Counted from the stretch's first letter, positions 1 through 19,481 are shown. The stretch: 64,000 nt of DNA from a bacterium (GCA_030429765.1 JAUIER010000012.1:32916-96915); one strand, 5' to 3'. Numbers and translations are program-made. Notes: a model not told the origin generated them from the sequence alone.

Positions 1-3000
1 GAATTTCCAGATTGGCTGACCATTAGGAAATCTCAAACCACCACCAGCCGGCGTTGGACTTTCATCGTATCGTGTTACCCGAAACTTGACTATACCATCC
101 GTATTGAACAGCTCATAGCAACGCTTCAACCCCCCCTTTCGGGTATAGGTCTCCACCTTGGGCCACTTAGGATCGGGACCTCCACCAACTCCACAGGCAT
201 TGTTACACCTCTTGGGTATTCGTCCCTCGACCTTTACGATATGCCAATAGGCCTCTCCCGGAGCTGCCGGCCTGTTTTCAGGTGAATTATCCTCCTGCCA
301 CCCATAAACGATTTGATTGGGCCAATCATCTGGTGGCGCTGCGTCATAGGCTATCCGTTCGTCGATCAACGGAGGAACCGCGTTGGTCAGAAAATCCTCA
401 AATTCGACGATGGCTGTGGTGAGAATATTCCGGAAGTAGTTTAACTCAGTCATTCTCGAATCCAGATAATCCCGGCGCATAATAAATTTGTCGATCTGGT
501 TTTCCGCCTCTATAGCCGCCGTTCCCGTGGAGGCTAGCCATCCTCCCGGGTTAATGTCACAAATAGGATTGGCCTGCACCAGTGAATCTCGCACCAACGT
601 GCGCATTCCGCGAGCATCATTCAAATCATTACCGTTACAGTCAAATATGGCATTAAAGTTGGAAATAGTTCCGCTGTAGGCATAAGCGGCCCCACTAGAC
701 GATTGAGTTAACGGCATGGCGGATAACACCGGATTCCATGGTAATCCGGCCGCCATTCCACGGCAGGTTAAATCCGAGCAGGCGTGAACACATTGGAGCA
801 TAGCAGCCATATCCGGCTCATCCAGCGGATCGGCCTGCACGTAGGCATTTCGATCATATGGCGGATTCGTCACCAATGTTCGCGGCAAATTGGTACATTC
901 GGCCAATGAGCAGGTTAGTTTACAATCATTGTACTGTGCATCGTTGCCGTCAAATATGCTTGATGCATTCAGACAGGCTACATCGGGGACCCCCCCGTTA
1001 CAAGTGTAATCATATCCGTGTATCGCGTAGTTGAGGCAAGCCACAACATCCTCAATTTGTCCATCCGTGCCGTCACCATTAAAGTCAAAAGTCAATTCCT
1101 CATAGGCACTTACGTCCGGACATCCCCGTGGCGGTACACACCACGGCCCCGTCGCACAAGCACTTCCCTGAAAACTTTGGACGGCCAGTGCACTCAGCTC
1201 ATCCCGAATGTCCACCAAGGCCTGTAGCCACAAATACAACTGCCCGGCAAATGGTTGGCATTCATCCGGCGTTCCCGGATCATTATCCCAATCATAAGGG
1301 TAGCAATTACCAAAATTGCCCGTCCCTCCTGGACTGGCCGCATTGGCCAATCCCTGGCCCGGATCGATCCATCGCTGCCAATTCTCAAACCATGTCTCAA
1401 ATTGCGATGCCAACTGACCGCGACTGTATTGCAATAGCGAATCAGCTTCTCGCGTAAATGTGTGCGTGTTATATATCATCTCGTCAAGAATATCCTCAGG
1501 GAAATTAGCGGCCGCGGTATCAGCTGGGCTGGTTGACGTCGGGTCCTCGCACTCACATATGGATGGTTCAGGGGTTCCGGAGACATTCGTCGTACAGTTA
1601 CCGTTCAGGAATTTGGCACATTGCCCACTGTAAGGCCATGCGGAAGGACCATCTATATCACCATTGGAACAAAATTGATCAGACCCACGCTTCCAGAATG
1701 CCCCCCCGGCATATGGGTCCGGCGCACATGTATCAACCGGGATTTCAAACGAACCTGTTAACGCCAAGGTCACATCATCAACATACGTCTCTACACAGTA
1801 GGATGTGTCATACGTCATGGTTGACGGGTCATTCCGTAATACCAGCTGATTCATTTCATATGGAAGATTAGGCGAACACAATGTAGCAGCCCTTGAATCA
1901 CACCATTTACACCGCTGGTCAAATGGGTTATAGACAGGGTTACCGATGACAAGCGTGCCCACCGTGTCCAATGAGTCCAGATCGGTTCCCCAGTCATGGA
2001 TCTTCCACAAGAATGGGAACACACCTATACGGTTTTCCGGAGTTGATGGCGGAGGAGCCGTGTACCCCGAATAGAATCCGGTGGTGTCGTCGACATAGTA
2101 ACGAATTCCCTGCCACGGAGGAGCAAACTGCTGCGCCCAGTTAGGGTTGGAGGAATCCTTGAAGTATCGTTGATTCTCGTCATCCTTGCCTAGGAGTTCC
2201 CGGAAGGAGAAAAAGGTATTTTCAGAATTTTCGAAATTTTCGTCAAAAACCCACTGATAGAAAGTCCCCAATGATGGCTCTACAGCCCCATATGGACTAA
2301 GCAATTGACAGGTACTGGCCGTTCCGCACTCCAAGTTTGGCGGGAAGAGTGTTGGATCACAGTAATCAGGGTTGGGTACCGTGATCAACGGTCCAGACGG
2401 GTTTGTTGGATCTGGTATCTGAATCGTCGGAGGTTTACCTCGACAGTCACAACATCCTGGTCGAACCTGAATCTGTCCAAAGGAAGGGCCTCGAGGATCA
2501 GGTACCGTGTCTGGCAAACAACACAAATTACACTCGGATGGGACCGAAAAAGGAAACGGATCGGTTACAGGATTGCCGTAAGGAACGTTGATATCCACGT
2601 GGCAAGGATGCGATGGATCCAGCGGAATCGAAAACGAGTAGTTGATAGTGCTGGTTTGCAGACCCGGGACGAAAGTTCCTGGCATGGGGTCAATTAGCGC
2701 CCAAGCCGGCTGGCAGGTCGCAGAATCCAAATCACATTCAGAGGCCGGTCCACAGGTGGTTCCAAAACAATCTCCGTTGGGCCCCGGAATCTTGTAAATA
2801 AAATCTTGAAGATCAACCAAAAATTGCTCTGCCGCAGGCAGATAATTTACGGCTATCTGGTCCAGCAAGAGCGGATAATATTTGGCGTACCGGTTCATGG
2901 TATCAAGCGGTTCAGATGTCACCGGATGAAGACCAAAGATACCATCCATATCTGAATCGTACAAATCTGGAACCTGCTTGTTGTCATTGGCTGCCACTTG

Positions 3001-3474
3001 AATAGCCCCGCGCATGGCGTTGGCCATAAACTGATCCACCGTATCCAGTAAGTTGGCCTCCAGATTATTCCATGCGCTGGTGATTTGGGAGCCTATGGAC
3101 ATTTGGAGTACCACCCCGACACCGGCAACAGCCACCGTGGTTATCGCAGCTGTCGCCCCAATAGCACCAACCCCGTACGTTACAACAACCAGAATAACAA
3201 TTACAATAAACGATATCAGCGCCTTGAAGAATCCTGTGCTTTGGCATTTCTTGCGTTCCCCACCCAGCTGCTGCATAAGCAACGAGTGCCCGTAGCTGGC
3301 CATGGCCGAGGCCAATGATGCCGCCCCGGTATTAGCCCCTATCTCCGTGGAAACTTTGTTTTCAGAGATCCGCCCCAAATTTAGTGTTACAGCATAAAAT
3401 ATCAACGCAAATGCGACAACCAAAAGGATAACCAGTCCGGCCTGGCCTTCTTTTTTTCGCATCGATTTGTTCAT
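1..3474 (-). CDS. Giant Cys-rich TadG-like protein, partial: N-terminus at 3474, C-terminus beyond the window start. N-terminal Tad/TadE-like pseudopilin-type TM segment (MNKSMRKKEGQAGLVILLVVAFALIFYAVTL), then a Cys/Pro/Gly/Asp-rich extracellular region.
   Basis: Manual translation of the reverse strand from ATG at 3474 stays open to position 1 (1158 codons) with no stop. The ORF track shows only short spurious ORFs here, because the long ORF has no stop inside the window. N-terminal hydrophobic segment resembles Tad/TadG (PF13400-like) proteins. About 50 Cys, including CC and CxC pairs. Confidence 0.6.
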   Translation of the reverse strand, partial: MNKSMRKKEGQAGLVILLVVAFALIFYAVTLNLGRISENKVSTEIGANTGAASLASAMASYGHSLLMQQLGGERKKCQSTGFFKALISFIVIVILVVVTYGVGAIGATAAITTVAVAGVGVVLQMSIGSQITSAWNNLEANLLDTVDQFMANAMRGAIQVAANDNKQVPDLYDSDMDGIFGLHPVTSEPLDTMNRYAKYYPLLLDQIAVNYLPAAEQFLVDLQDFIYKIPGPNGDCFGTTCGPASECDLDSATCQPAWALIDPMPGTFVPGLQTSTINYSFSIPLDPSHPCHVDINVPYGNPVTDPFPFSVPSECNLCCLPDTVPDPRGPSFGQIQVRPGCCDCRGKPPTIQIPDPTNPSGPLITVPNPDYCDPTLFPPNLECGTASTCQLLSPYGAVEPSLGTFYQWVFDENFENSENTFFSFRELLGKDDENQRYFKDSSNPNWAQQFAPPWQGIRYYVDDTTGFYSGYTAPPPSTPENRIGVFPFLWKIHDWGTDLDSLDTVGTLVIGNPVYNPFDQRCKWCDSRAATLCSPNLPYEMNQLVLRNDPSTMTYDTSYCVETYVDDVTLALTGSFEIPVDTCAPDPYAGGAFWKRGSDQFCSNGDIDGPSAWPYSGQCAKFLNGNCTTNVSGTPEPSICECEDPTSTSPADTAAANFPEDILDEMIYNTHTFTREADSLLQYSRGQLASQFETWFENWQRWIDPGQGLANAASPGGTGNFGNCYPYDWDNDPGTPDECQPFAGQLYLWLQALVDIRDELSALAVQSFQGSACATGPWCVPPRGCPDVSAYEELTFDFNGDGTDGQIEDVVACLNYAIHGYDYTCNGGVPDVACLNASSIFDGNDAQYNDCKLTCSLAECTNLPRTLVTNPPYDRNAYVQADPLDEPDMAAMLQCVHACSDLTCRGMAAGLPWNPVLSAMPLTQSSSGAAYAYSGTISNFNAIFDCNGNDLNDARGMRTLVRDSLVQANPICDINPGGWLASTGTAAIEAENQIDKFIMRRDYLDSRMTELNYFRNILTTAIVEFEDFLTNAVPPLIDERIAYDAAPPDDWPNQIVYGWQEDNSPENRPAAPGEAYWHIVKVEGRIPKRCNNACGVGGGPDPKWPKVETYTRKGGLKRCYELFNTDGIVKFRVTRYDESPTPAGGGLRFPNGQPIWKF

Positions 3475-3509
3475 AAATGACATCATATAATTGATTGTCC
3501 CGGGGCTAA

Positions 3510-3791
3510 TTAGTTGTCCCAAATAGCATTCATCGCCGTCCCCGACGAGAAAAATGGAGAAATCTGTGCAATTTGCTGACTGTCAGATACATTGGTATAT
3601 GACCGGCTCAACGTTTGACCGGTCAATATTGTGTCATGCGCAATCCTACGATTTACGATCTCTTTTCCTGACCATTCAAAAATTTTGGTTATCGAATAAA
3701 TCATCAGAAACACGATGATCATACTGAAGGTAAACTCAATGATGACCTGACCCAAGCGTCGTTCTTCAGATGTCTTCTTTCTTCGAATCAT
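3510..3791 (-). CDS. TadE-like pseudopilin (93 aa)
   Basis: N-terminus RRLGQVIIEFTFSMIIVFLMI matches the TadE-like pattern (basic residues, then G-Q/A, then an E-containing hydrophobic helix). Spacing to neighbours is 18-40 nt. Confidence 0.55.
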   Translation of the reverse strand: MIRRKKTSEERRLGQVIIEFTFSMIIVFLMIYSITKIFEWSGKEIVNRRIAHDTILTGQTLSRSYTNVSDSQQIAQISPFFSSGTAMNAIWDN

Positions 3792-3830
3792 TATATCATA
3801 CTCCTAACCGAGGAAATTGCCTACCAAATT

Positions 3831-5246
3831 TTACGGATATAGATACTGAACAAATGGATCTCCGTCCGTCGGCGTTATCCATTTTCGGCCATGCTTATCT
3901 GTTATCCGGCTTCGGACCAAAATGTGAGGATCCTGCCCGCCCAAAGTAGGAATAACCATACAGATTCTTGTCGCATTGGCGCTGGTAAAACAACAGGCAT
4001 TATTCGGACAGCACACCTCCACAGGATTACGCACATCTGATGTCCACCCAGCCTGATTTCCTTCAATCGTGCCCGGTTGAACTACAGAACTTCCATCCCC
4101 CGCCGTACCGTTGCAAAATCTGCCCGTATCATTACTCAGTTGAACCGTCCTCTGGATCAAATCAAGTGAATCTTTACGCTGTGCAGAACGAACATATCGT
4201 CTGGAATCGCCAGCCACCTGATACAACTGCCCCTCATCGATTTGAAGATAAGTGCCCACACCGTCACCGGCAGGTGTCCAATCTTTCGTAAATGTAAACA
4301 TTTGGATGTCTTGTGTCGTGATGCCCGCTGTCGGACGCTGCGGAGCCGGATTGAGAGGATCCGGATCTGGAATTGTAAAGTCCATGTCCCCTTCCTGGAA
4401 ATCCACCACATTGGCTGTTATCGGAGTCCCCCTCAGATCATCCATTGGACGGCCGTTGATACCAACAATCCTTTCCTGGTGCAAATCTCCATCGACATCC
4501 ACAAATGTAAATTCACCGTTTTCACCATCTATCTGTGAAGGTGTCGCAGCAATCCACTGCCACCAAAAATCCTGGCAGATCGCATCCATAGCCGGATCCG
4601 ACGCCAGTCCGTCATCAAGAGCCCCGTTTCGATCCAAATCGAATCGGTAGTAGTTGTTACCGCCGATATTGTCCACACAATTGGACGCCGTACCTCCACA
4701 ATCGCACCATGGTAATGCCGGGTGGTTGTTTTCTTTCTGATATACCAGCCCCGTGGGGTTGGCCGGAGAATTAAATGCCTTTGTCGCCACATTGGCTGTA
4801 GTGAACACAAAGTGCACCCCGTTAATAAAGTAATCGATAACCGGCAAATTGGCAAATTCACCCGGATCAATCGGCATAAAAAGATTACGACTATGGGTTG
4901 CTCCCCCAATCGCTTGTTGGGGAACCCTGTCGATTGGTGCCTGCCTGGAAGATTCCACCGACAGCCTATCTTCAATTACCAAAACTGAGGCACTGTTGCG
5001 GGAGGCGGTGCCATCACGCCAGTTTCCCGGAACATTTTTCAAACCTTCCGTAAATTCAAATGACATGAGCATCGCCAAGCGGAATGCTTTATAGCGATGA
5101 TTTTGTGCATAACTAGTTGTCATGACAGATCTTACAATAAGTCCAATAACAAAAACCACAACCGATCCAAACACCGCTAGTTCCAGAGCAGTTTGCGCTG
5201 TTTTGGATCGCCCCGAAATGGCTTTTTTTGTACGGTTAATATTCAT
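3831..5246 (-). CDS. Large TadE/TadG-like pseudopilin-type protein (471 aa). C-terminal Cys-rich region (VCCPNNACCF).
   Basis: N-terminus GRSKTAQTALELAVFGSVVVFVIGLIV is a Tad-type pseudopilin leader plus TM. Shares CC motifs with the giant gene downstream. Confidence 0.6.
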   Translation of the reverse strand: MNINRTKKAISGRSKTAQTALELAVFGSVVVFVIGLIVRSVMTTSYAQNHRYKAFRLAMLMSFEFTEGLKNVPGNWRDGTASRNSASVLVIEDRLSVESSRQAPIDRVPQQAIGGATHSRNLFMPIDPGEFANLPVIDYFINGVHFVFTTANVATKAFNSPANPTGLVYQKENNHPALPWCDCGGTASNCVDNIGGNNYYRFDLDRNGALDDGLASDPAMDAICQDFWWQWIAATPSQIDGENGEFTFVDVDGDLHQERIVGINGRPMDDLRGTPITANVVDFQEGDMDFTIPDPDPLNPAPQRPTAGITTQDIQMFTFTKDWTPAGDGVGTYLQIDEGQLYQVAGDSRRYVRSAQRKDSLDLIQRTVQLSNDTGRFCNGTAGDGSSVVQPGTIEGNQAGWTSDVRNPVEVCCPNNACCFTSANATRICMVIPTLGGQDPHILVRSRITDKHGRKWITPTDGDPFVQYLYP

Positions 5247-5249
5247 TTG

Positions 5250-5564
5250 CTAGTATGCTCCCACAGCCATAGAACCGGTTTTGGTTTCCAGTGAACGCGA
5301 GACATCATTACGCATTGTTTGCAGTCCAGACGGAGTCGATACAGACACCAGAGCCGTAACCGTATTCGTTTGAATAACATGACGTATACTTCCATTAGTC
5401 GTTCGAGGATCATACTGATCGCCTAATTGATCCACCGATTCTTTCCAACGTCCTTGCATGCCTCGCTTGAAGTAGTTTTGAGAGGCCACCAAGGCCCCTA
5501 TTACGATAATTAAAATCGTCGAGTATTCGATCGCTGATTGACCTTTGTTCTTTCTAATAATCAT
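5250..5564 (-). CDS. Flp-family (class III signal peptide) pilin-like protein, 104 aa
   Basis: N-terminus MIIRKNKGQSAIEYSTILIIVIGALVA carries the G/A-Q-x3-EY prepilin motif followed by a hydrophobic helix. Confidence 0.55.
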   Translation of the reverse strand: MIIRKNKGQSAIEYSTILIIVIGALVASQNYFKRGMQGRWKESVDQLGDQYDPRTTNGSIRHVIQTNTVTALVSVSTPSGLQTMRNDVSRSLETKTGSMAVGAY

Positions 5565-5591
5565 ATATTTATACCTCGACTTTATTCACCA

Positions 5592-5939
5592 TTAAACGTC
5601 TGGTTGGATCCCCAAATTAGTCAGGGTGTTAAGTTGGCCTGAAATCGCATCATCATAGACATAATTGATTATGCCGGCTACGTCTAATGTTTGCTTGTCT
5701 ACTCTGGCACTGGATATGCCATAAGATGCATTCAAATGCCCCTGGGTTATATCATTGAATCGCTGATCGGATTCGTTCTGCACGCCAATTTGATCGGCCA
5801 CAAATCTAATCCAACCTTGGGTGGAACGACGGATCATCGTTCCCATAACAGCCGTAATTGCCACAATAATCGTCAAAATCAGCGTATATTCGACCACCGT
5901 CTGGGCTCTGTGATTAGATTGTTTACTTTGCTTGAGCAT
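5592..5939 (-). CDS. Flp-family pilin-like protein, 115 aa
   Basis: N-terminus ...HRAQTVVEYTLILTIIVAITAVMG (A-Q-x3-EY motif plus hydrophobic helix). Confidence 0.5.
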   Translation of the reverse strand: MLKQSKQSNHRAQTVVEYTLILTIIVAITAVMGTMIRRSTQGWIRFVADQIGVQNESDQRFNDITQGHLNASYGISSARVDKQTLDVAGIINYVYDDAISGQLNTLTNLGIQPDV

Positions 5940-5944
5940 ATAAA

Positions 5945-6325
5945 TTAGTCCGCGTTTATGGCCGGAACTGTGAAACTGACAGAATTTGAAAATGTTGTTT
6001 GGTTGTAATCCTTGCGAAATATTCCAGAACTAAGTGGCAAGGAAGGTAATACGGCCGTCGTATCTGCAAATAAGGTCGTGGTATCTGTAACAGAATTTCG
6101 ATAGTATGGCTCATACTGTACGAAGACATCATTACCTCCGTAGATGTTTCCTACACGATTTCGAACGGTCGTGATAATGGAACTGTGGGCATCGCGAATT
6201 TTTGCCTGCACAGCCCGTCTAAAGTACATTGTCATTCCTGACAGCATGGCAACAACCACAAAAAAAACCAGAACATATTCTCCGGCGACCATTTGGGCTT
6301 TTTCATTTTCAAATCGTCTTAACAT
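5945..6325 (-). CDS. Flp-family pilin-like protein, 126 aa
   Basis: N-terminus ...EKAQMVAGEYVLVFFVVVAMLSGMTMY (A-Q-x4-EY motif plus hydrophobic helix). Confidence 0.5.
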   Translation of the reverse strand: MLRRFENEKAQMVAGEYVLVFFVVVAMLSGMTMYFRRAVQAKIRDAHSSIITTVRNRVGNIYGGNDVFVQYEPYYRNSVTDTTTLFADTTAVLPSLPLSSGIFRKDYNQTTFSNSVSFTVPAINAD

Positions 6326-6423
6326 TCTGGTCCTTTTTTAACACGGTAAGCTTCTCTATTATACACGAATCTATGGATAAAGATCAACTAAAAACACGTA
6401 TCACAAATTGTGAGCTACTTCAA

Positions 6424-6474
6424 CAAAATATGGCTTACCTGAGCAATTATATTCCTCAAGTAAGCCATATTTTG
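6424..6474. repeat. Perfect 15-bp inverted repeat (CAAAATATGGCTTAC … GTAAGCCATATTTTG) with a 21-bp spacer, in the pilin-cluster intergenic region
   Basis: Exact reverse-complement arms seen directly. Adjacent TCACAAATTGTGA palindrome at 6401..6413. Confidence 0.6.
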
Positions 6475-6509
6475 AACAAAACGACTAGCGAGTAGCCGTT
6501 TAGACTGTA

Positions 6510-6839
6510 TTAGTTACCCCAGAATTCTGACGTGTTGTTCAGAATTGCAGAGTTCATTAGGTCATACGTTGTCTCTGCTTGAGTCAACTGAGATCGTGTA
6601 ACCCCAGAAGCAAAAGTATCACGAGACTGTCCGATGACAACCATTTTCTTGATTACGTTAGTGTTACCTTCGGAATACTGTTGTCCAATATCATCAGCCG
6701 CTTGCTTCAATCGTCCTTGAACACCACGTTTGATGTATACCTGGATCGATAAAAGGGCACCAATGATAATGATGATCAGAATCGCATATTCCAATGTACT
6801 CTGACCTTTTTTTCTTTTCTTGTTAAAGTACTTAAGCAT
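6510..6839 (-). CDS. Flp-family pilin-like protein, 109 aa
   Basis: N-terminus MLKYFNKKRKKGQSTLEYAILIIIIIGALLSI. Nearly identical leader to the 7312..7533 paralog. Confidence 0.6.
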   Translation of the reverse strand: MLKYFNKKRKKGQSTLEYAILIIIIIGALLSIQVYIKRGVQGRLKQAADDIGQQYSEGNTNVIKKMVVIGQSRDTFASGVTRSQLTQAETTYDLMNSAILNNTSEFWGN

Positions 6840-6900
6840 TGATATATCCTCCCAAATTAATCCTCTAAGTTAATAGAGGGATTAAGTTATTATCTTCAGA

Positions 6901-7260
6901 TTACAGACCTTGAATAAGACCAAGCGCGGTGTTATATGATGATTCTTGGAAACCACCAACCCCTCTTGTTCTTGCGTTATCTGTTTGCTCAGCAACTGTC
7001 GTGTTATCCAATGTTTGGATTTGGTTAGTCGCTGTATCAATCAGATAATCAGTTTGTAGGTAATACGGCTCGTATTGTGCTGCTGTTCCCAAAGCGTTTG
7101 ATTGAGTAGTCATGTACTGCCCAGCTTCACGAACCCTGGCTTGTAGAGCACGTTGTGCATATGTCTGCATCGCAATAATACCGGCCACAACCAGTGAAAT
7201 CAGGATGGCATATTCTGCAGTATTTTGCGCCTTTTTATTTTTTATTAACTTTCTGAACAT
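6901..7260 (-). CDS. Flp-family pilin-like protein, 119 aa
   Basis: N-terminus MFRKLIKNKKAQNTAEYAILISLVVAGIIAM. Confidence 0.55.
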   Translation of the reverse strand: MFRKLIKNKKAQNTAEYAILISLVVAGIIAMQTYAQRALQARVREAGQYMTTQSNALGTAAQYEPYYLQTDYLIDTATNQIQTLDNTTVAEQTDNARTRGVGGFQESSYNTALGLIQGL

Positions 7261-7311
7261 TTATTTGTCCTCCTAAGATTAAATTCATGTAAAGATTGAA
7301 TTTTTCAAACA

Positions 7312-7533
7312 TTAGTTAGAAGTAGGTCGTGAAGTGGCCAATCGGTTAGCCATATCAGTCATACCGTTTGTACCCGTCGTTAGTGTACTGTTGTACGCTG
7401 TACGGAAGATACCATTAGGTCCTAGGAAAACCAAAAGGGCTGCTAATACGGCCGCAACCAAAATGATATACTCAACGGTACTTTGACCTTTCTTTTTCTT
7501 TTTAGGATTATTATTTATATTCCTTTTAAGCAT
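7312..7533 (-). CDS. Flp-family pilin, 73 aa
   Basis: N-terminus ...KKKKKGQSTVEYIILVAAVLAALLVFLGPNG. Shares the FLxPNG motif with the orphan gene at 17400..17612. Confidence 0.6.
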   Translation of the reverse strand: MLKRNINNNPKKKKKGQSTVEYIILVAAVLAALLVFLGPNGIFRTAYNSTLTTGTNGMTDMANRLATSRPTSN

Positions 7534-7592
7534 TGTCTTCCTCCTTAAAAAAGTTCACTTTTAAGATAGCGCCCACAAAACTTCATCGTGGG

Positions 7593-7760
7593 TTACTGAT
7601 TTCTGGACTCTTGAAGAATTATTTGTTGTGTTGCTTGTACTGATCTAAATACATAGGTACTCATGGCAATTGCTCCTGCTGCCACAATGGCTGCGATTAA
7701 GGCATACTCTAGTATACTTTGACCTGTCGTGTTTCTGATTTTTTGTTTCTTTGACCTCAT
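7593..7760 (-). CDS. flp: Flp prepilin, 55 aa (MRSKKQKIRNTTGQSILEYALIAAIVAAGAIAMSTYVFRSVQATQQIILQESRNQ). Below the ORF-track size cutoff.
   Basis: Found by manual reverse-strand translation. Classic Flp motif: a predicted cleavage site after G, then QSILEYALIAAIV. Typical Flp size. First gene after a dedicated promoter and leader. Confidence 0.6.
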   Translation of the reverse strand: MRSKKQKIRNTTGQSILEYALIAAIVAAGAIAMSTYVFRSVQATQQIILQESRNQ

Positions 7761-7912
7761 CGTAACCACCTTATGTATTTCACAAATAATGCCTGCTCTC
7801 GATGTGATGTTGCTTACATCAGAATCCTGAGAGCTCTATTGCTGAAGGGGTCGACTGTCCAGCCGGCCTTCAACACTTCGAAACATCCTGACTGATTCAG
7901 AACGAACCGAAG

Positions 7913-7935
7913 GGTAAAAGCACTCGAAAGTGCTA
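7913..7935 (-). terminator. Second leader hairpin: AGCACU-UUCG-AGUGCU followed by UUUAC
   Basis: 6-bp stem with a UUCG tetraloop and a weak U-run. Confidence 0.25.
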
Positions 7936-7947
7936 TTAACTCATTCC

Positions 7948-7977
7948 AATAAAAAACCCCTACAGTTATGTAGAGGT
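7948..7977 (-). terminator. Intrinsic-terminator-like hairpin in the flp leader (attenuator candidate)
   Basis: Minus-strand RNA reads CCUCUACA-UAAC-UGUAGGGG followed by UUUUUUAUU. The 8-bp stem holds a U.G wobble only on the minus strand; on the plus strand the same position would be a C.A mismatch. Confidence 0.4.
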
Positions 7978-7984
7978 AATCGGG

Positions 7985-8053
7985 TTATGGCTGTTTCAAT
8001 GAACGCAGACAGCATCTATACGAAATTTTCGTTTTGATCTCAAAAGTATTCAT
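7985..8053 (-). CDS. Candidate leader peptide (uORF, 22 aa: MNTFEIKTKISYRCCLRSLKQP) in the flp 5' leader
   Basis: AGGAG, 6 nt, then ATG. The stop lies about 8 nt upstream of an intrinsic-terminator-like hairpin. Confidence 0.25.
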   Translation of the reverse strand: MNTFEIKTKISYRCCLRSLKQP

Positions 8054-8111
8054 TTTTTCTCCTAGGAATGAAATCGTCATATCTGTATAAATGGCTGTTT
8101 AATGTGATAAA

Positions 8112-8139
8112 AGTATATCATATATCGAGTAATTGTCAA
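8112..8139 (-). promoter_or_regulatory. Sigma70-like promoter for flp
   Basis: On the minus strand: TTGACA at 8139..8134, a 16-nt spacer, TATACT at 8117..8112. Lies immediately downstream of the stop of the 576-aa gene. Predicts a 5' UTR of about 345 nt. Confidence 0.45.
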
Positions 8140-8164
8140 GGATCATGCAATGGTTGCCCTTCCC

Positions 8165-9895
8165 TTATATTAGGTCGAAGTTTAGCCGCCGCCCCTGTCG
8201 ATCCCGGATGTCCCGTGAATTGATCTCCTTGACCGCATGAATTAGCGAAGCCTTTGAATCCGCGGCCGATCCTGCCGAAATAGTCACATATACATGGCTC
8301 TCGTCCAATCGGTATGTGGCGGCACGGTCAAAAGTATCTGAAATTGTTAGACTTACGTATTTGCTGAGATATTGCCCCTCTACATAGGCCTGAACATGAG
8401 ATAAAAGTTGCTCGAACATTCCATCGACGTTCATTATAGTTGTCGCTGCGATCGGTTGAGAAGCCGACGGATCCTCATTTGAGGATACGGGCGCTTGATT
8501 GACATATTTCCGCATGAATGCATCCAGGATGTCCGTATCGGCCGTTTCTGCATTAGTAACCAGGGCCACTAGCGGCTCAGGTGATTCGTGAGCCCAAATG
8601 GCAAATACTGTCAGTGGCTGACTCAAATCATGAACATGTTCGTTCAGAATGTCGGTCGACATCTTGGCATACTGATAGATTGTGTCGTCATCATGACAGT
8701 AATAGGGGATTCGCTGGGCCCATTTCCCCGATTTGACCAATTCCTTCAGTTCTGGCTGACTTGGATGGACTCCAATGATAAATTCCCTGCGCTTAGGGAC
8801 CACGAAGGGTAGACTGGACAATGATCGTGATTCGCCATCAAGTATGTGGACCTCGTTTATAAAAAGCTGCTCTGGAATCTCAAATGATTCGACTAACGCC
8901 GCTATCTCCGGGCTTCCCAAGGAGCGTCCCTCGCTATTAAGCAGACACAAAGTATTGCTATTACTGACGATACAGCTGTCCAAAACAGAAATAGCCTTGT
9001 AAAGCGGTAGCTTCGTTGAAAAATTGTCATTTTTTTGTCCAATCTGAAATAGCTTTGTGTCCAGTTTTAGAGATCGTCCATCCGAAAAATCGATCTGGAA
9101 ACTCTGCGCCATGTTCTTGAGTTGATCAATCTCCAACTCTGCACGGGCCCAAAACGAGCCTGACTGTGAAGAATCAGTAATTTTGCCAATGACTCCCTCA
9201 TTTTGGAGTGGAAGCAACAAGGCTAAATCATTTCGACCTGAGTCTGAAGGGCCATTTTTCTCAAGCCTTGTGAGAATCTGAAAATCCAAGGCCTGGATCG
9301 TTTCCTGAGAATTAATGTCCAAACTGAGATCTCGAAAGAGTTCTGTGTAAAAATTTGACGATAGACATTCACATACACCGGCCAACATAAAAGTCAATCC
9401 TGCGTTGCTAATCGGATGCTCCTCCAAACCTTGTTTCCTTGACCGAATTGTTTCTACGGAGCGTAAGAACTCTTCGTCCAAACCACTCTCAGATTGGACA
9501 TTATTTTTGATCGCGTCCATTTCTTCTGTTTGACCAGAATCCGACATTGTCTGTACAGCTTCACTCTTTGTCGGATCATTTTCCTGGGGAGTAGTGACCC
9601 CTTCGGTTTCGGTCGGTATCGGGATCTTGGTGAGGTCCTGCGAAATCTGAATTTTCTTTTCAGCCGGGATCTCAAACTTCTTTTTCTTCTCGACCTTGAC
9701 CTTGGCCGGTCGACCAACGGAATTGCTTAAATTAGCTTGTTTTAGGATGGTGTTGATGGAGGATTTTGACACCTTGATCTCAAATTTCTCAGATGTCATC
9801 TCGGCTAGTTTTCGACAGCCCAGCTTGGGATTTGATTGCTTCTGATCAAGTATATAGTCGATAACTTCTTTTTTTAGTTTGTGGACAACACCCAT
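8165..9895 (-). CDS. HTH-domain protein of unknown function, 576 aa. N-terminal transposase/regulator-like HTH, a Lys-rich linker, then a large uncharacterised soluble region.
   Basis: N-terminal 60 aa (…KLGCRKLAEMTSEKFEIKVSKSSINTILKQANLS) looks like an IS630/ISL3-type HTH. No TM segments. Sits where tadB/tadC would be expected. Confidence 0.65.
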   Translation of the reverse strand: MGVVHKLKKEVIDYILDQKQSNPKLGCRKLAEMTSEKFEIKVSKSSINTILKQANLSNSVGRPAKVKVEKKKKFEIPAEKKIQISQDLTKIPIPTETEGVTTPQENDPTKSEAVQTMSDSGQTEEMDAIKNNVQSESGLDEEFLRSVETIRSRKQGLEEHPISNAGLTFMLAGVCECLSSNFYTELFRDLSLDINSQETIQALDFQILTRLEKNGPSDSGRNDLALLLPLQNEGVIGKITDSSQSGSFWARAELEIDQLKNMAQSFQIDFSDGRSLKLDTKLFQIGQKNDNFSTKLPLYKAISVLDSCIVSNSNTLCLLNSEGRSLGSPEIAALVESFEIPEQLFINEVHILDGESRSLSSLPFVVPKRREFIIGVHPSQPELKELVKSGKWAQRIPYYCHDDDTIYQYAKMSTDILNEHVHDLSQPLTVFAIWAHESPEPLVALVTNAETADTDILDAFMRKYVNQAPVSSNEDPSASQPIAATTIMNVDGMFEQLLSHVQAYVEGQYLSKYVSLTISDTFDRAATYRLDESHVYVTISAGSAADSKASLIHAVKEINSRDIRDRQGRRLNFDLI

Positions 9896-9960
9896 AGTTT
9901 TCCTAAGATCATCAGATTGGACATTTAAGTATACCGTCCAAATGCGTTTAGGTCAATGGT

Positions 9961-10326
9961 CTAACCAAGAATAATTTTGTCAGCGACTTGAGTGCGGGAA
10001 GATTGGATGACTCCTACTGGAACTTCGATGGCGGATTTTGCCTTCCAGTAAATTCGGCTTAGCCGATTGGGTCGGATATTTTGGACCAAACCCACCACGG
10101 TATTATTGTCATCGATAAAAATCACATCAATGGCGAAACGCATAAAGAACATGTGAATAGAATTACAATGGGTGATTAGCAGACCGTGACCCGGCTCTAG
10201 GGACTTGTGCTTAAGTAATCCCACCATTCTGGACATAAAGGTATCTGCTAAGACGGCTTGATCTGCGATAACCGTATTACGGGTGGAGTTTTCTATCTTC
10301 ATAAGGGTTAGGTTTTGATGTGCCAA
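9961..10326 (-). CDS. DUF192 (COG1430) family protein, 121 aa
   Basis: Size and sequence pattern (…GLLITHCNSIHMFFMRFAIDVIFIDDNNTVVGL…) typical of DUF192. Confidence 0.6.
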   Translation of the reverse strand: MAHQNLTLMKIENSTRNTVIADQAVLADTFMSRMVGLLKHKSLEPGHGLLITHCNSIHMFFMRFAIDVIFIDDNNTVVGLVQNIRPNRLSRIYWKAKSAIEVPVGVIQSSRTQVADKIILG

Positions 10327-10344
10327 CGTCGACGGGGATAGGCA

Positions 10345-12504
10345 CTAGACAGGCTTGTTGAACATCTCTTTATTGAAGTTCATTCCACGGGTAATAAAGT
10401 CGTGGTAACAGTTGGGGACGTATCCTGTGGCCTCAAACTGACCGAGAATCTTGCCATTGCTGTCCATCCCCTTTTGTTTAAATACAAAAACATCCTCGAG
10501 ATGAAGTTGAAAATCGGCCGTGAGTCCTGTTGTCTCGCTGACCCCCGTGATCTTTCTCGAACCGTCTGAATAACGGTTGATGTGAACGATGATCTGAATC
10601 GCTGAGGAGATCATCTCGTTAATCGCACGCACTGGCAGCTCGATACCACTTAACAGAATCATCGAGTGCATTCGGGTCAATACATCGCGTGTTGAGTTGG
10701 CGTGTAGCGTGGTCATTGATCCATCGTGACCGGTATTCATCGCCTGAAGCATATCAAGAACCTCGCCCCCGCGACACTCACCGATAACAATCCGGTCAGG
10801 ACGCATCCGCAGACAGTTGATAAACAAATCACGAATCGTGATCTGCCCTTTACCCTCAACGTTCGCTGGGCGTGACTCCAGACGTCCCCAATGGCTTTTC
10901 TTCAATCGAAGCTCAGCGGCGTCCTCAATCGTGATAATACGCTCGCTGTCGGGAATAAATTCTGAAACGACGTTTAGGAGCGTTGTTTTACCCGCACCTG
11001 TACCACCCGAAACGATCATATTTTTACGGCAAATAACACATGCCTGAAGAAAATCGGCCATTTCCTTGGTGATACTGCCGTATTTTTCAATCAAATCATT
11101 GACCTCGATACGTTCCTGCCCAAACTTTCGAATGGTGATCATTGGTCCGCCCAACGACAAAGGTGGAATAATGGCATTGATCCGCGATCCGTCCTGCAGA
11201 CGGGCATCAACCATCGGAGTCGATTCATCGATTCGTCGACCTAATGGCGCGATGATACGATCAATAATGGAGCGCATCTTTTCATTGGAAACAAATTTTC
11301 GATTGGTAAAAATCAACTTACCATTCTTCTCGACGTAGATTTCGTCCTTGTTGTTGACCATGATATCCGTTACGTCGGGATCGGCCAGGAAATCTTCCAA
11401 AGGACCCAGTCCAAGGGCCTCATTGACAATATCACGGACCACGCGTGTGCGCTCTTCTTGTGAGGAAATCTTACCACCAGACTCCTCCATAAGTAAGTTA
11501 AGAACGACCTGCTCGGCGCTTTTCTTGACCTTTACCGCCGATTCCGGATCACCCAGCATATCAACCGAAATTCCGTCGAGATTAAGCCGTTCGACCAATT
11601 TCTCATGAATCCGTTTCTTCAGCGATATAATCTCATCCTCTTCCGTCGCAAATGTCGTTGTCGTTCCCGCTTGCTGCGTGACACCAAATTTTTCCCAGAA
11701 CGATCCTTGTCCGGACATACCGTCAGTTGATCTGACCTTTTCGACATTGCTGGTCTCAACGTAAATATCGTTCTTCTTGAGCGCATTGACCATTTTGTTG
11801 AATGCATCAGCCACCCCGCTGCGAGGGCTATCTAATACGCAAGGAATCCCCTTGTTAAGGGCCATTCCGACCGTTTTTCCATCTGAAGGAATGTGCGCTA
11901 ATATTTCAACTGGAATCGCCGATCGAACTTCCTGCCAATGGACACTTCCGCGGCTCTCCGAACGGTTTAAGATCAGGCGGACCATATTCATCGGGTAGTG
12001 GAGACTCTGTAAAACGTCCAGACAATTCTTAATCTGATACACAGATAAAATATCCGGCGTTCCGACGAGAAGAATCAAATTCGTGTGGTCCAGCGCGGCG
12101 ACTAGAATATCACTAAACGTACGACCGGCATCAATAATGACATACTCGTATTGTTTGCGGGCAATACGAAAGAACGCCTGTAAAGCCTCGGCATTAACCT
12201 GAGCGATTTCTTTATTGTTTTTTATGGCTGGTAGGAAATGAAGTCCACTTTGATGGACGGTGGCATGCTGAGCTAACGGATCTTGATCGGCATTTGGATT
12301 GCTGAACGTGGGTATGATATCGACGACGGAATTACGAACCTGGACATTAAGCATTCGGGACATATCCTGTCCGGCCTGCATGTCTAGATCGACGAGCAAC
12401 ACCTTTTTTCCAGCTTTGGCTAGTGAAGCCGAAAGGTTTACTGCCGTCAGCGTTTTTCCAACCCCGCCCTTGCTGCTAAAGACGGTAATAATTCTACAAT
12501 CCAT
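10345..12504 (-). CDS. Fused pilus ATPase: N-terminal TadZ/CpaE-like ParA/MinD-type domain (no receiver domain) plus C-terminal TadA/CpaF secretion ATPase
   Basis: Deviant Walker A SSKGGVGKTLTAVNLS at residues 10-25 (ParA/MinD class). Second P-loop VSGGTGAGKTTLLN with T2SSE-family motifs (RIITIEDAAEL, GHDGSMTTLHANS) in the C-terminal half. Confidence 0.85.
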   Translation of the reverse strand: MDCRIITVFSSKGGVGKTLTAVNLSASLAKAGKKVLLVDLDMQAGQDMSRMLNVQVRNSVVDIIPTFSNPNADQDPLAQHATVHQSGLHFLPAIKNNKEIAQVNAEALQAFFRIARKQYEYVIIDAGRTFSDILVAALDHTNLILLVGTPDILSVYQIKNCLDVLQSLHYPMNMVRLILNRSESRGSVHWQEVRSAIPVEILAHIPSDGKTVGMALNKGIPCVLDSPRSGVADAFNKMVNALKKNDIYVETSNVEKVRSTDGMSGQGSFWEKFGVTQQAGTTTTFATEEDEIISLKKRIHEKLVERLNLDGISVDMLGDPESAVKVKKSAEQVVLNLLMEESGGKISSQEERTRVVRDIVNEALGLGPLEDFLADPDVTDIMVNNKDEIYVEKNGKLIFTNRKFVSNEKMRSIIDRIIAPLGRRIDESTPMVDARLQDGSRINAIIPPLSLGGPMITIRKFGQERIEVNDLIEKYGSITKEMADFLQACVICRKNMIVSGGTGAGKTTLLNVVSEFIPDSERIITIEDAAELRLKKSHWGRLESRPANVEGKGQITIRDLFINCLRMRPDRIVIGECRGGEVLDMLQAMNTGHDGSMTTLHANSTRDVLTRMHSMILLSGIELPVRAINEMISSAIQIIVHINRYSDGSRKITGVSETTGLTADFQLHLEDVFVFKQKGMDSNGKILGQFEATGYVPNCYHDFITRGMNFNKEMFNKPV

Positions 12505-12560
12505 AATTTCAAACTTACTGAAGAATGACTAATGAAAATTTAACGTATTATATACCGCTA

Positions 12561-14222
12561 TTAGTTTGTTTGCAAACTATAAACAATCGGAATTGTTATG
12601 TTCAGTTCCTGTAAGTCTGTCTCTGGTGGAAAACTTTCAAAAGGTGCAGTTTCACGGGCTGTATTTAAGGCATAGTCATCAAAGATTTCCTGCCCGGATG
12701 TTTCCTTGACTAGAGCATAGGCCAACGTGCCATCGCTCAGGATGTGCAGACCGATTTTGACAGTCCCTTCCCATCCGTAATCCTTGGCCTCCTGAGGATA
12801 AACAACTTGCTCAGAAATAGCCTGCTGAAGGTTTTGCACGTAATCGGTCATTTCCGGTGGAATAAATGACGAGTAGTCATCTCCTCCGGACATGGACATA
12901 TCCGACATAAACTTCGTCGTCGTAGGGTGCGGAACCTGACTATCCATCATCTTTTTACGAGGCGAATCCTCATTGAGCCCCGTATCGATTCGATGAGGTG
13001 TTAGTGAAATCACTAACTCGACATCTGAATCTGGTGATGGTGTTGATCGGGATCGGAAAACCAATCCGACAACTGGAATGCTGCCTAAAAATGGTACCTT
13101 TTTAACCAATTCACCCGAACGCTGTTGGATCAAACCGGCCAATACGATCGTTTGTCCATCATCAAGGAATAGCTGTGTGCTTGCGCTTCGCGTAACGAAG
13201 GCCACGTCATCCCCCACCGCATTCGAGTTGTCAATATCACTGATCTCAATATTGATCTGAACGTCAATCTTGTTACGCCGAATCGTCGGTGTGATCGTCA
13301 TTCCAATACCATACTCCTTAAATTCGACGTTTTCTTGAGTAGACGTTCCTGTCGATGTCGTCGTACGAATTGGAATTTCACCACCAATTAGGAAACTAGC
13401 CTCTTCGCCGCTCAGAACTACGAGTTTAGGTTGCGATAGGATTCGTCCCATACCTTCTTCTAATAGAGCATTTACGGTAGAAATCAGGGCGCTTGTACGA
13501 CGGAAGTCCCCAATCTTGAAGAAATCTCCAATGGATCCATCAAAATCAGGCAAGTCCTCTGCATAGTCCAGCTTAATACCTCCGCCGGATCCGGTGGCGC
13601 CATTACCACCACCAGCTGTCCAGTCAATCCCTAGACTCTTGGTTAAGGTGGTGTTAAGCTCCGTAACTTGTATGTCGATTTGAACCAAATCTTCGATGTC
13701 CTCTTCTTCCACAAGGCTTAGAACATGTTGGTCAAACGGAGCAATGATATCATCAAACAGTATGGCCTTTTTGTCAGGCACACTACCAGTTAGGACAACC
13801 CGCCCTTCCGGCTTATTGATATCCAATTTTACGTTGTTAATTCCAGCCCCATTGAGAAGTCGTTCAAGTCGATCTTTAATGACGCTTAACTCGGTTCCTG
13901 AGACGTTAATCATAACCACACGTTTGCCATGTTCGTCCCAGATAAATAAAGGTGTTTGGCCCACGTTTTTGGCAATCAGCAGGATTTCCTGTTCGTCGGC
14001 ATCGACAACGTCAGCAATGTCTGGATCAGTCATCGAAAGTCGGGTCAGGGAATATACGCGTAGTTGCGTCAACTCCCCCAGAACCATGTTGACTTCATCG
14101 GTGTATATTGTATCTAAAGCCTCAGCATCGGCTTGTTGAGGTCTTATTAGCCCAAGTCCCATTATTAGGAAGAGCGCCATTATGGTGAAAAATCTGTTAT
14201 GAGTTATCTGTGCTGTTTTCAT
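12561..14222 (-). CDS. CpaC/RcpA-type secretin with a C-terminal TonB_C-like domain
   Basis: Signal peptide, secretin N-domain, secretin core (…LIGGEIPIRTTTSTGTSTQENVEFKEYGIGMTITPTI…). The C-terminal roughly 90 aa (VVYPQEAKDYGWEGTVKIGLHILSDGTLAYALVKETSGQEIFDDYALNTARETAPFESFP) matches the TonB C-terminal domain pattern (PF03544). Confidence 0.8.
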   Translation of the reverse strand: MKTAQITHNRFFTIMALFLIMGLGLIRPQQADAEALDTIYTDEVNMVLGELTQLRVYSLTRLSMTDPDIADVVDADEQEILLIAKNVGQTPLFIWDEHGKRVVMINVSGTELSVIKDRLERLLNGAGINNVKLDINKPEGRVVLTGSVPDKKAILFDDIIAPFDQHVLSLVEEEDIEDLVQIDIQVTELNTTLTKSLGIDWTAGGGNGATGSGGGIKLDYAEDLPDFDGSIGDFFKIGDFRRTSALISTVNALLEEGMGRILSQPKLVVLSGEEASFLIGGEIPIRTTTSTGTSTQENVEFKEYGIGMTITPTIRRNKIDVQINIEISDIDNSNAVGDDVAFVTRSASTQLFLDDGQTIVLAGLIQQRSGELVKKVPFLGSIPVVGLVFRSRSTPSPDSDVELVISLTPHRIDTGLNEDSPRKKMMDSQVPHPTTTKFMSDMSMSGGDDYSSFIPPEMTDYVQNLQQAISEQVVYPQEAKDYGWEGTVKIGLHILSDGTLAYALVKETSGQEIFDDYALNTARETAPFESFPPETDLQELNITIPIVYSLQTN

Positions 14223-14225
14223 AGT

Positions 14226-15104
14226 CTATAGCTCCGCGCCCCCCCGAAAGATTTGAACAAAAGGCAAGTCATCCGCTTCAACTTCCTCGACTTCGACAGA
14301 CTCACGCCGCTCTGCTTTTTTCTGCTTTGGCAGATTGAGCTCTGTCCCTTGCTTATCCAAAACATAATCGGATAGTGAATCCCAGGCGGCCACTTGTAAC
14401 GCTTTAGTGTCTTTCTCCGCCGGAGATCGTAGGGCTAGTTTTAACTTTCCGTATTTCTGAGAAAAAGTGATCAACCCCGCTTCTTCAGGGGCGACTGCGA
14501 TCGTGACATTCAAGTCCCTTGATTTTTGTTGTTGCTGATAAACCAGCGCACTTCCTACCGGTTTAAAATTCGAATTGACGGCCAGCACCTGAATGTTCTG
14601 GAAGAGCACAGATGTAACTTCCAGTGGTTTTTCGAGAGGATCTTGGGGATGTGGCACCTGCAGATCAGCCAAGATATCTACATAATCTCCCGGATTGATC
14701 AATCCACCTACCGCCGATAGAGAATCGATCAGAATTGTCATGGCGCGTTTTCCTGGAGGTGTGATTGAAGCGAACACTGTACTGTCCACAATTTGCGTCG
14801 GCATGCCGGCGGCTGATTTGGCAACTTCACCTTTTGGAAGGTTAGCTAACTGTGCCTGCAACGCTTTTTGCTGTTGCTGCGCCATGGCCTGCATTTGTTT
14901 ATGTAATTCGCGGTTTTTGATCTCCATCTCTTTCCGCAAAGCAGCCGTTTGGGCTTGGGACTTCTTTTCGTAGTCCTGGGCCAATGCCTTGGTTTGTGAT
15001 TCAATACTTCCTTTAACGTATTGACTCATCAAGAAGGCAGCCACAAGCCCTAAACCCACAGCTAGTAGTATCGTTGCAAATTGTTTTTTGTTTTCAATGT
15101 TCAT
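14226..15104 (-). CDS. CpaB/RcpC-like pilus assembly protein: N-terminal TM, Gln-rich coiled coil, SAF/RcpC-like domain
   Basis: Matches CpaB in topology, domain pattern and position upstream of the secretin. Confidence 0.6.
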   Translation of the reverse strand: MNIENKKQFATILLAVGLGLVAAFLMSQYVKGSIESQTKALAQDYEKKSQAQTAALRKEMEIKNRELHKQMQAMAQQQQKALQAQLANLPKGEVAKSAAGMPTQIVDSTVFASITPPGKRAMTILIDSLSAVGGLINPGDYVDILADLQVPHPQDPLEKPLEVTSVLFQNIQVLAVNSNFKPVGSALVYQQQQKSRDLNVTIAVAPEEAGLITFSQKYGKLKLALRSPAEKDTKALQVAAWDSLSDYVLDKQGTELNLPKQKKAERRESVEVEEVEADDLPFVQIFRGGAEL

Positions 15105-15117
15105 AGTTTCACCTCGG

Positions 15118-16125: not shown

Positions 16126-16371
16126 TTGAGGCTCCTTACTATTTGCAATTTTTATTTATAAAGTATATCCGCTATCCTCGCCTCTGACAAGCCTGTTTCG
16201 GCTGTTTATGCAAAATTATCAAAATTTTACATATCTTTGGCAATTAAATCATCGAATAACTTGCCCAATATTTGTGCAACACATTCAATGATATCATATT
16301 ATGAGAGCAATGCAAAATTTTTTAGGCTTATTTTTTGTAAATATATGATTTTTATATATTTATGTTATTTT

Positions 16372-17355: not shown

Positions 17356-17399
17356 ACTTTCCTCCTTAACATAAATATTTGGAATTAAAAGATTTAGGA

Positions 17400-17612: not shown

Positions 17613-17640
17613 GAAATCCCCCTGTGCGTGCGCGTAATTG

Positions 17641-18429: not shown

Positions 18430-18507
18430 TCACTCAAGATTGTCGTCGATATTGAACCTGAAACCTATTCTCATTCTAGTTTCATATTGTGAAAAAGGCA
18501 ATGTGTT

Positions 18508-19476: not shown

Positions 19477-19481
19477 AAAAA

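Follow-up and report, generated by a model that had tools for sequence, protein, structure and literature searches.

This study concerns a tandem array of seven small genes, here called w1 to w7, on the minus strand of a 64,000-nucleotide (nt) stretch of bacterial DNA (GCA_030429765.1 JAUIER010000012.1:32916-96915; below, the window, with positions counted from its first letter). Their products resemble the pilins of Tad (type IVc) pili, several of which have been described in predators. The Kil Tad pilus of Myxococcus xanthus has a major pilin, KilP, the Flp-like adapters KilK and KilO, and KilL/M/N tip complexes (PMC12075869, PMC8460266), the tips being Cys-rich, disulfide-rich and of the TadE/F/G type (PMC12075869). 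Bdellovibrio bacteriovorus carries flp1-flp4, half of them inside the tad operon and half outside it, called in 2017 the "largest known type IVb pilin complement" (PMC5430801). The presumed origin of Tad systems is an archaeal system like Epd (PMC6668835), and the Epd pilins of Methanococcus maripaludis have a leader of 5-13 amino acids (aa) ending in Gly, Gln at +1 and Glu at +5 (PMC3875500, PMC6668835), with a short major pilin (74 aa) and minor pilins of roughly double that length (130-156 aa) (PMC3875500).

The DNA comes from a Candidatus Omnitrophota bacterium, because the relatives of its Tad ATPase are nearly all from that phylum. The 80 loci with the best ATPase similarity (best identity 68%) are nearly all titled Omnitrophota, Omnitrophica or relatives, with some automatic "uncultured Planctomycetales/Planctomycetia" titles and one Deltaproteobacteria label among them. 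Omnitrophota are abundant, uncultured and ultra-small, and are thought to be predators or parasites. Tad complexes have been reported in the group and are expressed in V. archaeovorus, and giant open reading frames (ORFs) are common in it (PMC10066038); a 2026 preprint found that Tad cassettes flank the Omnitrophota giants (10.64898/2026.06.07.730766). In the published accounts of the Omnitrophota Tad locus we found no description of the pilin complement. Here we describe that complement, and we consider it likely that the seven ORFs are old paralogues with separate, conserved roles in an Omnitrophota Tad pilus, some in the shaft and others as minor pilins.

Seven conserved prepilin-type genes in tandem

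A preliminary description of this DNA listed seven tandem minus-strand genes of 55-126 aa at 5250-7760, and all of these ORFs are present (Table 1). Each product starts with a leader of 8-16 residues that contains 3-7 Lys or Arg and ends in G or A, followed by Gln at +1, three residues (four in w5), Glu at +5 (+6 in w5), Tyr, and a hydrophobic run of 14-19 residues. The signature read there earlier, a basic stretch, [G/A]-Q-x3-4-E-Y and a hydrophobic helix, is found in all seven and is nearly absent from shuffled sequence. When the window paralogues were aligned, the processing motif was conserved, with Gln, Glu and Tyr invariant. The motif is present in all eight paralogues, the eighth, w8, being a remote gene that the preliminary description had placed correctly and that most resembles w2. 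None of w1-w7 contains a Cys.

A six-frame motif scan over the whole 64-kb window returned w1-w8 and one further ORF, of 93 aa, and nothing else; these nine motif ORFs compare with a mean of 0.005 in 200 shuffles. The NCBI and Logan assemblies call all these genes with identical products, the 55-aa w1 included. The shuffles, the gene calls and the conservation all argue against chance ORFs, which we reject. Each of the seven is a genuine gene that encodes a prepilin-type subunit. In w1, a GTG at 7769 falls within the Shine-Dalgarno sequence (GGTGG), so the ATG at 7760 is the likely start. The best Shine-Dalgarno sequences of the array belong to w2, w3 and w4, that of w2 being a strong AAGGAGG.

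We surveyed the 46 related loci that extend at least 8 kb downstream of the ATPase gene, and found arrays of 5-11 such small genes in 40 of them, starting a median of 2.7 kb past the ATPase. Genes of the relatives were assigned to the best-matching window paralogue, an assignment that is fuzzy in the most distant loci. The order is fixed in the closer relatives: w1 (~51 aa), w2 (60-90), w3 (~120), w4 (~108), optional extra copies (w2' onwards), w5, w6, w7, and then the genes for a 471-aa and a 93-aa protein. Among 29 closer arrays, w2 and w3 occur in all, w4 in 27 and w1 in at least 25 (23 scored, and two that the scan missed and that were recognised by eye).

The window paralogues are 30-50% identical over their first 40-55 residues only; w7 and w4 share 50% identity over 54 aa and a profile match over 69 columns. 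Between genomes whose ATPases are ~57-68% identical, full-length identity of orthologues is 43-50% for w1-w4 and w7 and ~31-33% for w5 and w6, and orthologues are more alike than paralogues. Profile-profile comparison finds all seven homologous (95-99.9% probability). In w3-w7 it is the first ~45 columns that align with the w1 profile, and the pairs w3-w4, w3-w5, w4-w7 and w6-w7 align well past the helix, the homology of w3 to w4 and to w5 covering 79-86 columns. The four-residue spacer that puts Glu at +6 is found in 11 of 13 w5-type proteins and in none of ~340 others. Since their order is conserved in the closer relatives, we regard the seven as old, non-interchangeable paralogues.

The preliminary description had also offered a repertoire for antigenic or functional variation, in which the paralogues would be alternative major pilins, expressed one at a time, that change antigenicity or host range. 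Many tandem paralogues are indeed present, and in four genomes (L001, L020, L030 and L038) the w2-w3-w4 block is duplicated as a unit and has diverged, which might yield fibres or tips of alternative kinds, much like the Kil tips, which are interchangeable (PMC12075869). The duplicates within a genome are 40-76% identical per pair (~65-72% in L001 and L038) and w4 copies between genomes 42-55%, mostly below the within-genome values, which suggests repeated duplication of a co-functioning w2-w3-w4 module. However, each of the seven genes is a distinct orthogroup and stands in the same order in closer genomes, and their lengths and C-terminal parts differ. In the array we found no long DNA repeats or invertible elements, the only DNA shared among the seven genes being one 30-nt motif-coding stretch (67-77% identity), and the intergenic gaps are tight (3-61 nt bar one), which fits co-expression. 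On the orthogroups, the conserved order and the absence of DNA repeats we therefore disfavour a variation repertoire and hold it to be very improbable.

In many relatives (L006, L008, L011, L013, L019, L023 and L041) a second w2-like gene, of 60-66 aa, directly follows w4. The w4-w5 gap of the window, searched for a remnant of a w2-like gene, contained none; w8, 10 kb away near mdh, may have been relocated from this empty slot.

Table 1. Pilin genes, Tad neighbours and putative expression signals. Positions refer to the window unless L081, an identical Logan contig that continues beyond the window start, is named.
Feature	Position	Strand	Description
w1	7593-7760	minus	55-aa prepilin, 42 aa after predicted cleavage
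w2	7312-7533	minus	73-aa prepilin, 57 aa predicted mature
w3	6901-7260	minus	119-aa extended pilin
w4	6510-6839	minus	109-aa extended pilin; last gene of the probable first unit
w5	5945-6325	minus	126-aa extended pilin
w6	5592-5939	minus	115-aa extended pilin; start 5 nt past w5 stop
w7	5250-5564	minus	104-aa extended pilin; nearest paralogue w4
w8 (remote paralogue)	17400-17612	minus	70 aa, w2-like; between a CN-hydrolase gene and mdh
RcpC/CpaB	14226-15104	minus	Pfam RcpC 5.3e-23
RcpA-type secretin with C-terminal TonB_C	12561-14222	minus	Pfam Secretin 1.8e-40, T2SS-T3SS_pil_N, TonB_C 3.1e-14
Fused CpaE/TadZ-like ParA domain and CpaF/TadA ATPase	10345-12504	minus	719 aa; T2SSE 2.6e-59; AAA_31/ParA at residues 4-242
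DUF192 protein	9961-10326	minus	between ATPase and pilins
576-aa protein	8165-9895	minus	only a weak N-terminal helix-turn-helix-like match; between ATPase and pilins
Intergenic leader	7770-8164	minus	395 nt, upstream of w1
Hairpin	6424-6474	minus	perfect stem, 36 nt past w4 stop, then UUUUGUUG; inverted repeat with 24-nt arms, 92% complementary
Promoter-like site	6358-6387	minus	TTGATC-18-TATAAT, ahead of w5; 10/12 matches, by consensus only
471-aa pilin-like protein	3831-5246	minus	leader ending in A, then QTALELAVFG; 10 Cys
93-aa pilin-like protein	3510-3791	minus	leader ending in G, then QVIIEF; no Cys
1270-aa protein	1-3486	minus	N-terminal 1162 residues in window, runs off window start; G, then QAGLV, without Glu5; 48 Cys
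119-aa pilin-like protein	L081 11827-12186		beyond window start, between the 1270-aa gene and tadB; A, then QSTIEI; 8 Cys

Family models and predicted structure

The assignment of these genes to the Flp family in the preliminary description holds in the broad sense, that of a class III signal peptide in a Tad locus, but not by the Pfam model. The best Flp_Fap (PF04964) score, that of w1, is 20.4 bits (E 4e-4) against a gathering threshold of 32.2, the other six (w2-w7) have no match at E<=1, and five of the seven proteins are about double Flp size, in keeping with the earlier remark that most of the array exceeds it. The Class_IIIsignal model (PF04021, UPF0333) is passed by w2 alone among the paralogues (28.4 bits, cut-off 23.7), with scores below the cut-off for w4 (15.8), w7 (13.8) and w8 (13.7 bits); w3, w5 and w6 have no relevant Pfam match, and none of w1-w7 matches TadE (PF07811) at E<=1. 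Among 150 array pilins, those of relatives included, PF04021 matches 36, Flp_Fap 17 and TadE four at E<=0.01. The Gln+1 signature appears to suit the archaeal class III signal model better than Flp_Fap. That these are prepilin-type proteins with a class III signal peptide and a conserved processing motif, inside a Tad locus, is supported.

The thin support from curated hidden Markov models (HMMs), with Flp_Fap below threshold and nothing in NCBIfam, is what would be expected if these were unrelated small membrane proteins that share an N-terminal pattern by chance. We give that idea next to no credence: the motif is specific (nine matches where 0.005 would be expected), its Gln+1, Glu+5 and Tyr+6 do not vary, the array sits within a Tad locus that is itself conserved, and PF04021 is passed by w2 and matched by 36 of the 150 array pilins.

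The five extended pilins (w3-w7; predicted mature length 96-116 aa) form families without any Pfam or NCBIfam model that they pass. For w4 we found 1170 homologues in a 90%-clustered database, and all those that carry an organism name are Omnitrophota; JGI labels some of them "UPF0333 family" or "Flp pilus assembly pilin Flp". An exhaustive HMM search with w4 gave 801 clusters (50% identity) at E<=1e-10.

Flp pilins are small (~50-80 aa) and all-helical, and have no globular beta domain. By size w1, w2 and w8 agree with this and w3-w7 (104-126 aa) do not, and the w4 model contains four beta strands; therefore only three of the eight fit the Flp size and all-helical layout. Of these, w1 is essentially the alpha-1 helix alone, its 42 mature residues being fewer than the 45 of the chains in two solved Tad pilins (8u1k and 8u2b), whereas w2, like w8, has the usual Flp layout of a helix, a Gly/Pro turn (G-P-N-G-x-F in w2) and a second helical stretch. 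We take w1 as a candidate shaft subunit, and w2 as a candidate shaft or adapter subunit. Among the extended pilins, w3 and w5 have a QYEPYY motif in common. AlphaFold modelling of w4 gave a pLDDT (predicted local distance difference test) of 65.5 with a 37-sequence alignment and a mean of 73.2 with 77 diverse sequences, the latter model having a helix at 15-51 and four strands at 60-99. With moderate confidence, this predicted layout is that of a type IV pilin in miniature, with an N-terminal helix and a small beta-sheet. In PDB sequences, a profile search matched the helix at the N-terminus and nothing else, and that only marginally (geopilin at E 0.01, Flp pilin 8u2b at E 1.4, Caulobacter PilA 8u1k at E 3.3).

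Tad machinery, tip candidates and probable expression units

The array is surrounded by Tad genes (Table 1). RcpC, the secretin and the fused ATPase are encoded upstream, with a PpiC-type rotamase gene ahead of them on the same strand, while TadB and TadC (285 and 292 aa, one T2SSF domain each) lie just past the window start on L081, where the order beyond the 1270-aa gene is 119-aa pilin-like gene, TadB, TadC and a giant ORF of 9568 aa. An ATPase, TadZ/CpaE, TadB/TadC, a secretin and RcpC/CpaB, the components of a Tad (type IVc) pilus, are thus all present beside the pilins, and the order from PpiC to TadC is conserved in relatives. In the 61 best of the 80 listed loci the match covers at least residues 6-715 of the fused ATPase. 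Counterparts of the two proteins encoded between ATPase and pilins occur in the same place in 59 (576-aa protein) and 72 (DUF192 protein) of the 80 loci. The TonB_C domain is an unusual addition for a Tad secretin.

The pilin-like series extends downstream of w7 through the 471-aa, 93-aa and 1270-aa ORFs, which the preliminary description had missed. The 471-aa protein has no Pfam or NCBIfam match; its orthologues retain [G/A]Q-x3-E-[LI]-A-[VI]-F-G, Glu5 included, and it is probably a TadE/F- or KilL-like tip component. The 93-aa protein, whose gene is at the same position in 21 of the 29 closer arrays and whose TadE match (PF07811) reaches only E 0.19, may be TadE- or KilM-like. The full length of the 1270-aa protein is known from L081. 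Only this protein lacks Glu5, as do its orthologues in the 12 cases in which the N-terminus is displayed. GspK, the tip pseudopilin of type II secretion, also lacks Glu5, and the 1270-aa protein is a probable TadG/KilN-like, tip-most subunit. Finally, the 119-aa Cys-rich protein has matches in 39 related loci.

The locus also recalls a secretion pseudopilus, that is, a short piston like that of type II secretion, with one major and four or five minor pseudopilins, which would export or display cargo such as the 9568-aa protein instead of forming a long adhesive pilus. About five small minor pilins with a predicted beta domain and a large subunit without Glu5 resemble GspH-K, and the giant ORF (L081, 15141 onward) begins ~1 kb downstream of TadC. 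According to the preprint, secretion or pilus cassettes usually flank the giant ORFs of Omnitrophota (bioRxiv 10.64898/2026.06.07.730766). Against this, the machinery is entirely of the Tad type (RcpC, RcpA-like secretin, CpaF, split TadB/TadC), and the giant protein has a Peptidase_C39 domain near its N-terminus (residues ~209-332). Such domains are typical of ABC-type exporters, which suggests a separate export route. We accordingly leave the pseudopilus very little probability.

From w1 down to the 471-aa gene, the intergenic gaps are 59, 51, 61, 184, 5, 27 and 3 nt. The 184-nt gap, between w4 and w5, contains a very stable hairpin (-34.3 kcal/mol for an 81-nt segment, z -7.4). When the 90 nt after each stop codon were searched for hairpins of <= -28 kcal/mol, these were found after 21 of 93 w4-type genes, and after 0/32 genes of the w1 type, 1/60 of w2, 1/68 of w3, 0/12 of w5 and 0/26 of w6. 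Its position after w4 is conserved and its sequence is not; T-runs stand behind many of these hairpins, and in duplicated modules the hairpin comes after the last w4. It is a probable intrinsic terminator or mRNA 3' stabiliser closing a w1-w4 unit. The same gap holds a promoter-like site ahead of w5, although such sites are not enriched over shuffles in the region. The earlier claim that only the first gene has its own promoter and leader is therefore doubtful, and from these signals the array is probably split into two units, w1-w4, and w5-w7 with the tip genes and TadB/TadC.

The placement of the hairpin bears on what the shaft is made of. The main rival to our reading is a mixed fibre of co-transcribed w1-w4, all four abundant, for example a helix-only core decorated by w3 and w4, which would bear beta-sheets. 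This heteropolymer is in line with a strong terminator-like hairpin after w4 and not w1, at a place that recurs in relatives, with the better Shine-Dalgarno sequences of w2, w3 and w4, with the conservation and spread of w1-w4, which are the highest of the array (23-29 of the 29 closer arrays, 43-50% orthologue identity), and with the duplication of w2-w3-w4 as a unit. However, for each of the solved Tad filaments 8u1k and 8u2b only one pilin chain, of 45 residues, is listed, and co-transcription does not fix stoichiometry. We take the mixed fibre seriously but judge it unlikely.

Upstream of w1, the leader contains the best promoter-like site of the region (8139-8112, 11/12, extended -10 TG), a small ORF of 22 aa (8052-7984) that has a Shine-Dalgarno sequence, a terminator-like hairpin (7977-7956) and a second small hairpin followed by UUUU (~7934-7917). 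The last recurs in four of seven relatives; the leader sequence is otherwise not conserved in them. This leader could be an attenuator or the end of an upstream operon, and, on candidate sites of this kind, the w1 promoter cannot be placed with any confidence. Rfam gave no match on 3000-18000.

Shaft subunit or subunits plus several minor or cap subunits, as the preliminary description proposed, is the best reading, and we infer the cleavage, assembly, stoichiometry and tip architecture as follows. By analogy with the studied Tad and other type IV systems, a prepilin peptidase of the TadV/CpaA type would cut off the basic leader between [G/A] and Gln(+1). The TadB/TadC platform, powered by the fused CpaE-CpaF ATPase, would then lift the hydrophobic alpha-1 helices from the inner membrane, and these would pile up to form a filament whose exit is by way of RcpC and the secretin. 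The Flp-sized w1, w2 or both would probably supply the shaft, the adapter layer or both. The extended w3-w7 would probably be low-copy minor pilins that initiate assembly and connect the shaft with a tip rich in Cys, itself probably built from the 471-aa, 93-aa and 1270-aa proteins and the 119-aa Cys-rich pilin beyond the window. The 1270-aa protein, without Glu5, would sit at the apex, as GspK does in type II secretion. From the published lifestyle of the phylum, a likely job for the fibre is attachment to host or prey cells.

Several results weigh against this reading. None of w1-w7 scores up to the Pfam threshold for Flp_Fap, and a search of NCBIfam gave no relevant family for any of them, the few matches being weak and unrelated. 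The beta-sheet part of the w4 model has a pLDDT of only 62-72, and a Foldseek search of that model against the PDB gave no significant match. An A24 prepilin peptidase (TadV/CpaA) was found neither by Pfam, on the large ORFs of the window and in the 10 kb beyond it on L081, nor by a crude GxGDxK motif scan of related loci. Six of the 46 related loci have no array beside the ATPase, and the hairpin after w4, not w1, fits a co-expressed w1-w4 equally well. The shaft protein, finally, is named as a candidate only.

The remaining genes of the window are origin-proximal housekeeping genes (dnaA, dnaN, gyrB, gyrA, parAB and others). The region at ~20000-31000 resembles a chromosomal origin, with dnaA, dnaN, gyrB and gyrA on the minus strand, yidC and parAB on the plus strand, and a GC skew that flips sign at about 26-28 kb. 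This places the Tad locus close to the apparent origin, as has been reported for the Tad locus of V. archaeovorus (12382-29832; PMC10066038). Apart from this, a ribosomal protein L20 ORF on the plus strand (38986-39657) encodes 223 aa, roughly double the 107 positions of the Pfam L20 model, and its C-terminal stretch has a weak likeness to Ribosomal_S13 (29.9 bits, just under the cut-off).

Comparison with described systems

The locus shares with canonical Tad loci (Aggregatibacter flp-tad, Caulobacter cpa and Pseudomonas aeruginosa flp-tad/rcp) RcpC/CpaB, an RcpA-type secretin, TadZ/CpaE, TadA/CpaF and a split TadB/TadC. Its pilins likewise have the short basic leader, the Glu5-Tyr6 "Flp motif" and the hydrophobic helix, and the first pilin gene is small. 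However, a canonical locus holds between one and three flp genes (50-80 aa) beside TadE/F/G, whereas here there are seven in tandem and one remote, five of them longer than 100 aa. Textbook Flp pilins have Ala, Val or Thr at +1, where the Omnitrophota pilins have Gln. This locus also differs in that TadZ and TadA are fused, the secretin carries TonB_C, tadV was not found in the locus and Flp_Fap is not passed.

Bdellovibrio resembles the present case as a predator with multiple, differentially used Flp pilins, and Omnitrophota TadB and TadC group with their Bdellovibrionales counterparts (PMC10066038). It has four flp genes, against seven and one here and up to 10 or 11 in relatives. The set is thus well past Bdellovibrio's in size, and it is richer and better conserved than those of the Tad systems studied so far. 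The locus is nevertheless recognisably that of a Tad pilus, which makes this an advance in degree and detail, not in kind. What was known is the Omnitrophota Tad locus itself, and what is new is an unusually large, ordered, phylum-conserved pilin set that includes extended families without a curated model.

The Kil pilus would be, by analogy, the closest worked example. It too is a Tad-type machine of a predatory bacterium with several pilin classes: a shaft subunit, all-helical Flp-like adapters of ~59 aa, and a Cys-rich TadE/F/G tip with a very large apex protein, a trio predicted to sit as a heterotrimer on a bundle of alpha-1 helices. In the Omnitrophota locus the 471-aa, 93-aa and 1270-aa genes likewise come after the Flp-like genes, and the first and last of these encode 10 and 48 Cys. 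This tip likeness is one of sequence features (class III-type N-termini, Cys, and a largest protein without Glu5). The two differ in that nothing described in Kil corresponds to the five conserved extended pilins (104-126 aa), and in that the Omnitrophota pilin genes lie in one fixed-order locus, whereas the Kil tip genes form four scattered clusters. The Tad locus, with giant genes beside it, is among the few concrete clues to the way in which Omnitrophota make contact with their hosts, and our results provide specific shaft, adapter and tip candidates together with a testable expression architecture.

The Epd pilins resemble the array in the short leader, in Gln+1 and Glu+5 and in the combination of a short pilin with others of about double its length, and no curated model matches the array better than PF04021. 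On the other hand, the array stands in the locus of a diderm bacterium, alongside genes for a secretin and RcpC, whereas Epd belongs to an archaeal host with EppA and without a secretin, and Tyr+6, invariant in the window paralogues, is missing from the Methanococcus pilins (PMC3875500). A bolder proposal, which is speculative and probably wrong as a whole, is that the Omnitrophota fibre is no simple Flp homopolymer but a layered or mixed filament of at least eleven fixed pilin-type proteins, including a phylum-wide "extended Flp" family (alpha-1 and a mini beta-sheet) for which curated models are lacking, and that it preserves in a bacterium the pilin complement of an Epd-like ancestor, with its short pilin, its pilins of about twice that length and its Gln+1. 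If this were true, these ultra-small predators of archaea and bacteria would hold a concrete structure intermediate between the type IV pili of archaea and the Tad pili of bacteria.

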